Notes under the pieces: generated by a model
Told to the model about the DNA's origin: nothing
The model's input: the letters and a program-made list of their open reading frames with translations, nothing else
Databases searched by the model: none
Assembly (NCBI RefSeq): GCF_054482525.1
Contig: NZ_CM137006.1
Direction: 5' to 3' (one strand)
DNA: 64,000 nt
Program-made: the position numbers and the translations under genes
Shown here: positions 33,073 to 34,412 of the stretch, piece by piece
How positions within the stretch are numbered: the stretch's first letter is position 1
How the letters are laid out: each line of letters opens with the position of its first letter

Positions 33073-33084
33073 TCTTTAAAGAAG

Positions 33085-33113
33085 AGCTCGTACGAAAGTA
33101 CGGGCTTTTTTTT
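33085..33113 (+). terminator. rho-independent terminator after serX
   Basis: hairpin around cgtac-gaaa-gtacg followed by a run of eight T. Confidence 0.7.
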
Positions 33114-33163
33114 CGTATATTGCACACACCGGGGGGATGAGAAGCCCCGACCGGGGTACTTAG

Positions 33164-33850
33164 TTAATGCAACGGTTCACCCTTTGTCGCCGCGGCTAAT
33201 GGGCGAATTTTGTCACGGGTATCCCAGACCGGAGGGATTTCATCCAATTTAGTGACAGAAGCTCGTACAAAAGGCACCCGTGCAATAGTCATAATCGTAT
33301 TCAACCAACGGTCACGAATAATGCGATCTGCCCTTTCATGACTCGGATCATCCAGCTCAATAACACAGACTATTTTGTTGTTCTTCTTTGAAACCAGAAC
33401 ATAATCCATTGCCATTCCATTATAAATTGCAAAGAAACGCTTTCTTTCTTCTTCGCTAAACTCGGGTTGTTCTGGAAAGTTGATCAAGCGCCCCAGAGAG
33501 ACCTGGCAATGGATATGACAATAATGTCCAAACCATTTCTCCAGATTATCAAAATAGATTTTTTCACAACGCGTAATTAACCACTCTTTTCCTTCCAATA
33601 AAATACCTTCGGCAACCATTCCATGAAATAACTCATCTCGTTCTTGCCAACGAGAGTCACGATAGGTTTTCTGCGGTGTATAGCTCCTTGTCGACGCCTT
33701 AGCAGCAGGGGAAGTTGCAGAGGAAGGGACTGGTTGCGATTTAGTGATGATTACCGATGAGGCAACTTTTCGTAGTGTCAATTTTCTGGCAACAGCAAAA
33801 CCGGCGACAAATGCAATTGTCAAACAAGTTACAAAAACCATAAAGCTCAT
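33164..33850 (-). CDS. membrane-anchored DUF2726-like protein (restriction-endonuclease-fold family), accessory
   Basis: 228-aa ORF: N-terminal TM helix (res 4-22), Ser/Thr/Pro-rich linker, then a core with CxHxHC (res 111-115) and ...MDYVLVSKKNNKIVCVIELDDPSHERADRIIRDRWL... resembling the DUF2726 signature; sits where K-12 carries ycdU/pga. Confidence 0.6.
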   Translation of the reverse strand: MSFMVFVTCLTIAFVAGFAVARKLTLRKVASSVIITKSQPVPSSATSPAAKASTRSYTPQKTYRDSRWQERDELFHGMVAEGILLEGKEWLITRCEKIYFDNLEKWFGHYCHIHCQVSLGRLINFPEQPEFSEEERKRFFAIYNGMAMDYVLVSKKNNKIVCVIELDDPSHERADRIIRDRWLNTIMTIARVPFVRASVTKLDEIPPVWDTRDKIRPLAAATKGEPLH

Positions 33851-34366
33851 AATTAATCTTCACCTATCCATGTTGATTATATTTCATTACTAACGCTACT
33901 CGCTGTAGCGAGTTACATGCCAACAATTCAACGATCTATATATATTTAGTATCATGTTTTGATTATTACAACCATCTCTATTTTACCATTGCGGCTTGCC
34001 GTCCACAAAAAATAACAACACACAATATTAGCTGAAGAATTAATTAAGATTAACCTTATATTTTTAATATTATCCCTAAAAAATAAAATCAGGAGAATAT
34101 ATTCGGTGTTAATCAGTCAGTCAAATTATGGCCCATTGCTGATTAAACCTCATACGCAAAATTGGCACCAGACCTCCTGTACAGGTTGAATGGCTGGAAA
34201 AAGATAGGCAAAAAACTCTCCGCGCTGGCGGCATTACACTGGTCGGGTGCTATGACGAAAAATGCCTGGTAAGAGTATCTAAACCAGAATTCATTTCAGC
34301 TTATCAACACGCTCAAAGTCGCCCCCCTGAACGTTAACCTGAAGTGAAAGTCTTTGCTGTTAATGA

Positions 34367-34395
34367 AATAAAACAAAGCCCGGTTCGCCCGGGCT
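34367..34395 (-). terminator. rho-independent terminator downstream of phoH
   Basis: hairpin agcccgg-ttcg-cccgggct followed on the minus strand by ttgtttt. Confidence 0.6.
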
Positions 34396-34412
34396 CTGCG
34401 CCGATAATACAC

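Follow-up and report, generated by a model that had tools for sequence, protein, structure and literature searches.

The serX-phoH interval is 1,340 bp long (33073-34412, confirmed by script), because serX ends at 33072 and the PhoH open reading frame ends with its stop codon at 34413 on the minus strand. serX, a tRNA-Ser(GGA) gene, is the single tRNA gene detected by ARAGORN in the window, by which we mean the whole 64-kb stretch of DNA that was analyzed. Upstream of it lie ghrA and ycdX, both on the minus strand, and beyond phoH lies efeB, followed by efeO and efeU (Table 1). Besides short spurious frames, the only open reading frame of note between serX and phoH encodes a 228-aa DUF2726 protein. 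It is accompanied by a 562 bp spacer, which has a GC content of 36.6% over 33851-34369, compared with 50.2% for the whole window.

Table 1. Features of the serX-phoH region and of the csgC insertion (positions are those of the window).
Feature	Position	Strand	Basis
IS1 in csgC, 768 bp, InsA and InsB ORFs	~24788-25554	+	Alignment to PCN033; outside the serX-phoH allele
ghrA (ycdW), conserved serX-side flank	31813..32751	-	Pfam 2-Hacid_dh_C, E = 2.1e-45; annotated by PGAP in the identical PCN033 sequence
serX, tRNA-Ser(GGA)	32985..33072	+	ARAGORN; Rfam tRNA, 53.8 bits
104-bp unit: last 19 nt of serX, terminator hairpin and GC-rich hairpin	33054..33157	+	blastn against K-12, junction sequences, Tandem Repeats Finder, Rfam
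Allele-specific segment, 1,212 bp, 40.1% GC	33158..34369		blastn breakpoints, GC content
DUF2726 gene, intact, 228 codons	33164..33850	-	Pfam PF10881, 66.9 bits (cut-off 24.7)
AT-rich spacer, 519 bp, upstream of the DUF2726 gene	33851..34369		Composition, 36.6% GC
phoH terminator hairpin	34370..34412	-	Terminator scan: stem 34399..34373, 11 pairs, then T run
phoH, conserved flank	34413..35201	-	Pfam PhoH PF02562, E = 6.8e-77; PGAP coordinates from PCN033

The DUF2726 gene is preceded by an AGGTGA Shine-Dalgarno sequence ahead of its ATG, and a promoter-like site with 10/12 matches lies further upstream in the spacer (34124..34096, minus strand). Across six genomes, E. albertii included, the spacer aligns from end to end, and the ~45 bp ahead of the start codon are nearly fully conserved. 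The spacer thus probably carries the promoter of the DUF2726 gene. It also contains an ORF-like stretch on the plus strand (~34140-34337), which was considered as a gene and rejected; a Pfam search of this stretch gave no match and its frame is broken differently in each allele, and it was taken to be a decayed remnant.

The DUF2726 protein comprises a hydrophobic N-terminal segment predicted to be helical, a linker rich in Pro, Ser and Ala, and the DUF2726 domain itself (residues 90-205, matching positions 3-116 of the 126 in the Pfam model). The gene is intact at 228 codons in six of six genomes with dN/dS values of 0.14-0.37, which points to purifying selection. E. coli and E. albertii do not differ at any of residues 99-161 and differ at few over residues 57-200, and the candidate acidic catalytic residues D149, E165 and D167 are invariant in the six orthologues. 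The family has been placed within the PD-(D/E)XK nuclease-fold superfamily, with no known function (Steczkiewicz et al. 2012, PMC3424549). Searches with the protein gave no match in PADLOC or NCBIfam and no meaningful match to PDB sequences, and its sole match in PHROG is an entry without an assigned function (phrog_14167, E = 3.5e-12); an AlphaFold model built from the six close orthologues had a mean pLDDT of 40.1 and is unusable. A membrane-anchored, nuclease-like role might be guessed at from the hydrophobic N terminus and the three invariant acidic residues. As the only gene of its cassette, it matches the DUF2726 family well above the Pfam threshold, but it differs from other members in its hydrophobic N terminus and in occupying a fixed chromosomal site rather than lying among mobile elements.

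In K-12 MG1655 (NC_000913.3) the same flanks enclose a very different set of genes, in the order phoH, pgaD, pgaC, pgaB, pgaA, dgcT (ycdT), IS3D (insE/insF), the pseudogene ymdE, ycdU, serX and ghrA, and the distance from the phoH stop codon to serX is 11,508 bp. The flanks are 97-99% identical between the window and K-12 (ghrA 98.4%, phoH 98-99%), and blastn places the end of homology at 33157 on the serX side and its restart at 34370 on the phoH side. On the serX side, the final sequence shared with K-12 is the 104-bp unit; on the phoH side, a comparison of junctions shows that the first shared sequence is the phoH terminator hairpin, and genomes with pga have the stop codon of pgaD 6 nt past this hairpin. 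The two breakpoints enclose 1,212 bp in the window and 11,380 bp in K-12, the latter comprising pgaDCBA-dgcT-IS3D-ymdE-ycdU and RtT repeats. blastn detected no similarity between these two segments, and tblastn with PgaA-D and DgcT found no homologue in the whole window at E <= 1e-3. The repeats in K-12 consist of 3.4 tandem copies of a 181-bp unit located by Tandem Repeats Finder next to serX, rather than flanking the pga block, and this array carries two RtT matches (RF00391, 46.3 bits); the window has no match to this family at E <= 1 between 32500 and 35000. The preliminary description of this DNA had put the serX-phoH interval at only 1.3 kb, holding a DUF2726-like gene and ~560 bp of AT-rich DNA, had given the K-12 gene order with a separation of roughly 12 kb, and had concluded that the ycdU/ycdT/pgaABCD block is missing at this site. 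The measurements, the K-12 annotation and the searches above agree with it on all of these points.

Since the 1,212-bp segment has no homology to the K-12 block, it is not a remnant left by deletion, and the short interval represents a replacement of one cassette by another rather than a clean deletion. The position beside a tRNA gene also brought to mind a classical tRNA-integrated island, and this candidate was rejected: no integrase gene and no phage genes occur between serX and phoH, and no direct repeat of the tRNA 3' end is found at the far border, the 104-bp unit with the serX 3' end being present once in the window. Uropathogenic E. coli CFT073 does carry a pathogenicity island associated with serX (PAI-CFT073-serX; PMC3855560), and serX is in both cases a hot spot of variation among strains. 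In contrast to that island of >100 kb, the variable segment here is 1.2 kb long and is devoid of integrase, phage genes and flanking direct repeats.

The preliminary description had also proposed an alignment of the interval against K-12 and other E. coli genomes. Among 5,426 complete E. coli genomes, the 2.2-kb junction region of the short form is contiguous in 1,041 (~19%), including that of the enteroaggregative strain 042, so the form recurs widely. A collapsed or misjoined interval arising in assembly can be given practically no weight as an explanation, as three independent complete genomes match the junction region at 100% identity and it is contiguous in these 1,041. At least three forms of the allele, with the same two junctions, could be distinguished. 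The first is phoH-DUF2726-serX, found in this window and in A22, EC9 and APEC O2-211; the second is phoH-pgaDCBA-dgcT-serX (8.3 kb), found in CE10 and MSB1_7A; the third is the phoH-pgaDCBA-dgcT-IS3-ymdE-ycdU form with RtT repeats (11.5 kb) of K-12. Additional RtT units are present in EC9 and APEC O2-211, the latter of which also has an IS3.

To place the short form in a wider context, the DUF2726 protein was scanned against one genome per species for 100,044 species. Close relatives are confined to Escherichia, apart from one evidently contaminated MAG contig, and include proteins of the E. albertii type strain (87% amino acid identity) and of Escherichia sp. MOD1-EC7003 (94%), in both of which the gene adjoins phoH. 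In the one E. albertii genome that was aligned, a contig of NBRC 107761 is collinear over efeO-phoH-DUF2726-serX-ghrA with 88.7% identity. The DUF2726 coding sequences of the window and E. albertii are 88.8% identical, compared with 86-96% for flanking core genes, which argues against a recent import of the cassette from E. coli. Synteny at a species-level divergence indicates an old, inherited allele rather than a recent loss in this strain. On these sequence comparisons, the short allele is inherited and old rather than freshly deleted, and represents a vertically inherited and selectively maintained state.

The same data bear on a recent, strain-specific deletion, in which ~10-11 kb would have been lost from a K-12-like arrangement by an IS-mediated or illegitimate event. 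The IS1 in csgC shows that this strain has active IS elements, the K-12 block itself contains an IS3, and attrition of pga in phylogroup A is reported by Kempf et al. (PMC4951805). However, a deletion would not account for the 1,212 bp of unrelated sequence between the junctions; neither junction carries an IS or an IS scar, and E. albertii and 1,041 complete E. coli genomes share the identical arrangement. We consider such a deletion extremely improbable. The absence noted in the preliminary description thus reflects an old alternative allele, and not a loss that this strain underwent after descent from a K-12-like form.

The pga operon also looks old at the phoH site. Between K-12 and phylogroup F or other divergent alleles, pga is 97.4-98.6% identical, which is a core-like level, and a foreign pga module of 86% identity, discussed below, retains a phoH fragment beside pgaD. 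Across the Enterobacteriaceae, the phylogenies of PhoH and PgaABCD have been found to be congruent, and apparent losses of recent date were noted in Escherichia (PMC5464674). These observations bear on a different order of events, in which the DUF2726 short form would be ancestral in Escherichia, pga-dgcT would have been gained later from other enterobacteria, and the lineage of this strain would never have had pga. The presence of DUF2726 beside phoH in E. albertii and Escherichia sp. MOD1-EC7003 is consistent with this, as are a GC content of the pga block below that of the genome (pgaDCBA 46.0%, dgcT 38.6%), the demonstrable mobility of pga modules, and a suggestion by Cimdins et al. (PMC5635171) of phage-derived acquisition in some strains. 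Against it, the congruent trees favor vertical descent with loss, pga diverges within E. coli to a core-like extent, the DUF2726 cassette also has a low GC content (40.1%), and close homologues of the DUF2726 protein occur only in Escherichia among the 100,044 species representatives. A later gain of pga is possible, although we doubt it.

Taken together, we assign a probability of about 0.88 to the reading that the phoH-serX region, known to be variable, is present in the window as its short, pga-less allele, and that this allele is inherited and old. A mechanism is proposed where a deeper enterobacterial ancestor would have had pga beside phoH, the DUF2726 cassette would have replaced pga-dgcT early within Escherichia, and homologous recombination in the conserved flanks would since have moved both alleles from one lineage to another. 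Early replacement followed by exchange through the flanks would be the most economical reading. An allele-linked deep divergence was sought in the phoH and ghrA flanks and none was found, these being 97-100% identical irrespective of the allele carried; how and in which direction the change took place therefore stays inferred, and long-term coexistence of haplotypes gains no support from the flanks. In a more ambitious interpretation, DUF2726 and pga-dgcT would be ancient, mutually exclusive alleles that predate the split of E. coli and E. albertii and persist as a trans-species polymorphism under balancing selection, a benefit from the conserved nuclease-fold DUF2726 protein with its hydrophobic N terminus trading off against the production of PGA. 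We regard this as unlikely; if it were true, the trade-off might concern survival in the host or conflicts over DNA and phages.

Whether the operon is carried elsewhere was addressed with the nearest complete genome, that of the porcine ExPEC strain PCN033, used as a stand-in for a whole-genome check for pga. The window is 99.97-99.98% identical to the PCN033 chromosome, and the IS1 in csgC is the sole structural difference. PCN033 belongs to phylogroup D and serogroup O11, and its plasmids include the 161.5-kb p3PCN033 and two of 3.3 and 4.1 kb (PMC4578781). A chimeric 3.1-kb query, consisting of window positions 33158-34900 joined to K-12 pgaC, was run with blastn in word-11 mode; because pgaC was set on the opposite strand, the two parts of the query cannot merge into one match. 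On the PCN033 chromosome this query matched in one place only, the DUF2726/phoH site, with no pgaC-like DNA elsewhere. On p3PCN033, no pga gene is annotated and tblastn with PgaA-D and DgcT gave no match, and the plasmids of 3.3 and 4.1 kb are too small for a pga operon. No set of a pgaC-type GT2 synthase together with pgaA, pgaB and pgaD was found in the window, on the PCN033 chromosome or on p3PCN033.

A relocated operon, from which PGA would still be made by way of a chromosomal or plasmid copy, deserves consideration because such copies do circulate. A phoH'-pgaDCBA-GGDEF module of 86% identity, flanked by IS elements, adjoins fecABCDE in E. coli MLI023K2; pga matches of 80-90% identity are found in about 80 records; and an operon with a PgaC of 67% amino acid identity occurs on plasmids of E. 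coli, Enterobacter and Klebsiella. Moreover, 4,410 of the 5,426 complete E. coli genomes have a pgaABCD match and 1,016 have none, so that the 1,041 genomes with the short form slightly outnumber those without a pga match. On the other hand, besides the single match place on the PCN033 chromosome and the lack of a PgaA-D match on p3PCN033, the chimeric query found a single place, and hence no pgaC, in 12 of 12 short-form genomes drawn as an even sample of the ranking. A relocated pga is thus quite improbable in this strain. Because extra copies circulate on islands and plasmids, a search of the whole genome is always advisable when the native site lacks the operon.

The lineage of this strain lacks PgaABCD and DgcT at the site, and its closest sequenced relative has them nowhere else. 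From established knowledge of the pathway, we infer that the PGA/PNAG exopolysaccharide would not be made by this route and that the strain would lack one of the diguanylate cyclases of K-12. The preliminary description had stated that the strain appears to lack the PGA locus and its diguanylate cyclase neighbor, and had named pgaABCD elsewhere in the same genome as the finding that would speak against it. The first statement is supported by the search of the window and by the PCN033 proxy, and no such copy came to light on the PCN033 chromosome or p3PCN033.

Several studies have already reported strains in which pga, ycdT, ymdE and ycdU are missing between phoH and serX (Kempf 2016; Cimdins 2017; Echeverz 2017). 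Kempf et al. (2016, Sci Rep, PMC4951805), in the passages that deal with this region, describe pgaABCD-ycdT-insFE-ymdE-ycdU as a genome island with efeB/phoH on one side and ghrA/ycdXYZ on the other, which is missing from about 10-20% of phylogroup A. In a corresponding part of Cimdins et al. (2017, PMC5635171), the phoH-csgG interval of strains Tob1, Fec101 and B-8638 is described as devoid of pga, ycdT and the IS, and Povolotsky and Hengge (2016), a survey of c-di-GMP genes, is cited for the frequent absence of YcdT. The window shares with these strains, as they are portrayed in those passages, the same flanks (efeB-phoH and serX-ghrA-ycdXYZ-csgG) and the same missing gene set. It also shares with the known pga-less phoH-serX allele the recurrence in a sizeable minority of strains. 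However, the passages concerned cover the missing genes only, whereas the DUF2726 cassette, the fixed junctions and the sharing with E. albertii come from the present analysis, and this strain is phylogroup-D-like, as judged from PCN033, in contrast to the phylogroup A strains in that part of Kempf et al. As absence of the block had been described before, the preliminary description amounts to a correct reading of a known polymorphism, and the pga-less short allele is an ordinary strain-to-strain difference.

A parallel is offered by Salmonella, another enterobacterial lineage without the PGA operon that its relatives keep beside phoH (Echeverz et al. 2017, PLoS Genet, PMC5464674). In Salmonella the loss is fixed throughout the genus and was shown experimentally to favor survival in the host, PGA being harmful to the bacterium there, whereas in E. 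coli the difference segregates as a polymorphism within the species. In uropathogenic E. coli CFT073, PGA/PNAG is a fitness factor during bacteremia and infection of the urinary tract (PMC3855560).

Roughly a fifth of the complete E. coli genomes are without the pga operon, and a porcine ExPEC lineage of high virulence is among them. PGA/PNAG acts as an adhesin in biofilms and is a target for vaccines or antibodies. The absence of the operon, a fact already published, is of practical relevance to anti-PNAG strategies and to the reading of biofilm phenotypes. The additions made here are modest: a conserved DUF2726 cassette occupies the site between fixed junctions, E. albertii has the allele as well, and divergent extra pga modules circulate on islands and plasmids.

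The IS1 in csgC, already remarked upon in the preliminary description, is indeed present as a 768-bp element that is missing from PCN033. None of the complete genomes contains this IS1/csgC junction in one piece, and eleven have an IS1 near csgC. The element splits csgC, which is intact in PCN033, at about codon 41, and the overlap of the two alignments on either side of it implies a 9-bp target duplication.

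Upstream of the DUF2726 gene, the AT-rich spacer of the window contains an open stretch that lacks a start codon (see the table). This stretch can be made out in each of the six short alleles compared (the phoH-DUF2726-serX arrangement without pgaDCBA-dgcT, E. albertii included), with its frame broken differently in every one, and it has no Pfam match. It resembles what is left of a gene that has decayed. At the adjoining 3′ end of phoH, Rfam reports a strong match to Ysr251, a Yersinia antisense sRNA family, that lies antisense to the gene; this match probably reflects nothing more than conservation of the phoH coding sequence.

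Features of the window discussed in the text (nucleotide positions)
Feature	Position	Strand	Remarks
IS1, 768 bp, with InsA and InsB ORFs	24788-25554		csgC split near codon 41
Single partial repeat unit downstream of serX	33054-33157		
64-codon open stretch without start codon, in spacer	~34140-34337	+	contains VQVEWLEKDRQKTLRAGGITLVGCYDEKCLVRVSKPEFISAYQHAQ
Ysr251 (RF02855) match	34418-34611	+	Rfam, 192.8 bits (gathering score 100)
447-aa ORF between putP and efeU	40282-41625	+	hypothetical in PCN033 annotation, WP_001247682.1

On the other flank, the number of repeat copies downstream of serX varies independently of the pga/DUF2726 allele. In K-12 (comparison locus L001, 13962-14584) the unit is 181 bp long, takes in the 3′ end of the tRNA and is present in 3.4 tandem copies; this array gives two Rfam RtT (RF00391) matches. 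Three copies of the 104-bp core are present in E. albertii, and one RtT is annotated in each of EC9 and APEC O2-211. The window has a single partial unit, and Rfam returned no RtT match at its serX.

Additional pga modules were found in other genomic contexts. E. coli MLI023K2 (L005, NZ_CP116916.1 3970614-3978865) possesses a second, divergent module with 86% nucleotide identity to K-12, which comprises a 3′ fragment of phoH and pgaDCBA together with a GGDEF gene that is frameshifted. The module is adjoined by fecABCDE and bordered by IS3, IS30 and IS911 remnants. Around 80 records contain pga matches at 80-90% identity. A pga operon is also found on plasmids in PLSDB (for example, NZ_CP080068.1 11991-13313), where PgaC shares 67% amino acid identity with its K-12 counterpart. 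These plasmids, of 39-246 kb, come from E. coli, Enterobacter and Klebsiella, and an operon of the same type, again with a 67% identical PgaC, occurs on Plesiomonas plasmids of approximately 300-400 kb.

In Escherichia sp. MOD1-EC7003 (L007), phoH directly adjoins putP, efeUOB is missing, and a molybdopterin-oxidoreductase-like gene cluster lies downstream of DUF2726 in place of serX-ghrA. These differences therefore indicate a rearranged neighbourhood in this species. The putP-efeU gap of the window spans about 2.7 kb, compared with about 0.2-0.7 kb in EC9, CE10, A22 and MSB1_7A, and the 447-aa ORF sits inside this expansion of roughly 2 kb. Its sole Pfam match, to PipB2_N, is below threshold (16.9 bits; cut-off 27).

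Across the 64 kb, the sole structural difference between the window and porcine strain PCN033, the nearest complete genome, is the IS1 in csgC. The overlap of the two alignments implies a target duplication of 9 bp, and the uninterrupted IS1/csgC junction was found in no complete E. coli genome of the collection. Separately, PGAP annotates yceH as frameshifted in PCN033 (1205909-1206560, corresponding to approximately 3825-4476 of the window).
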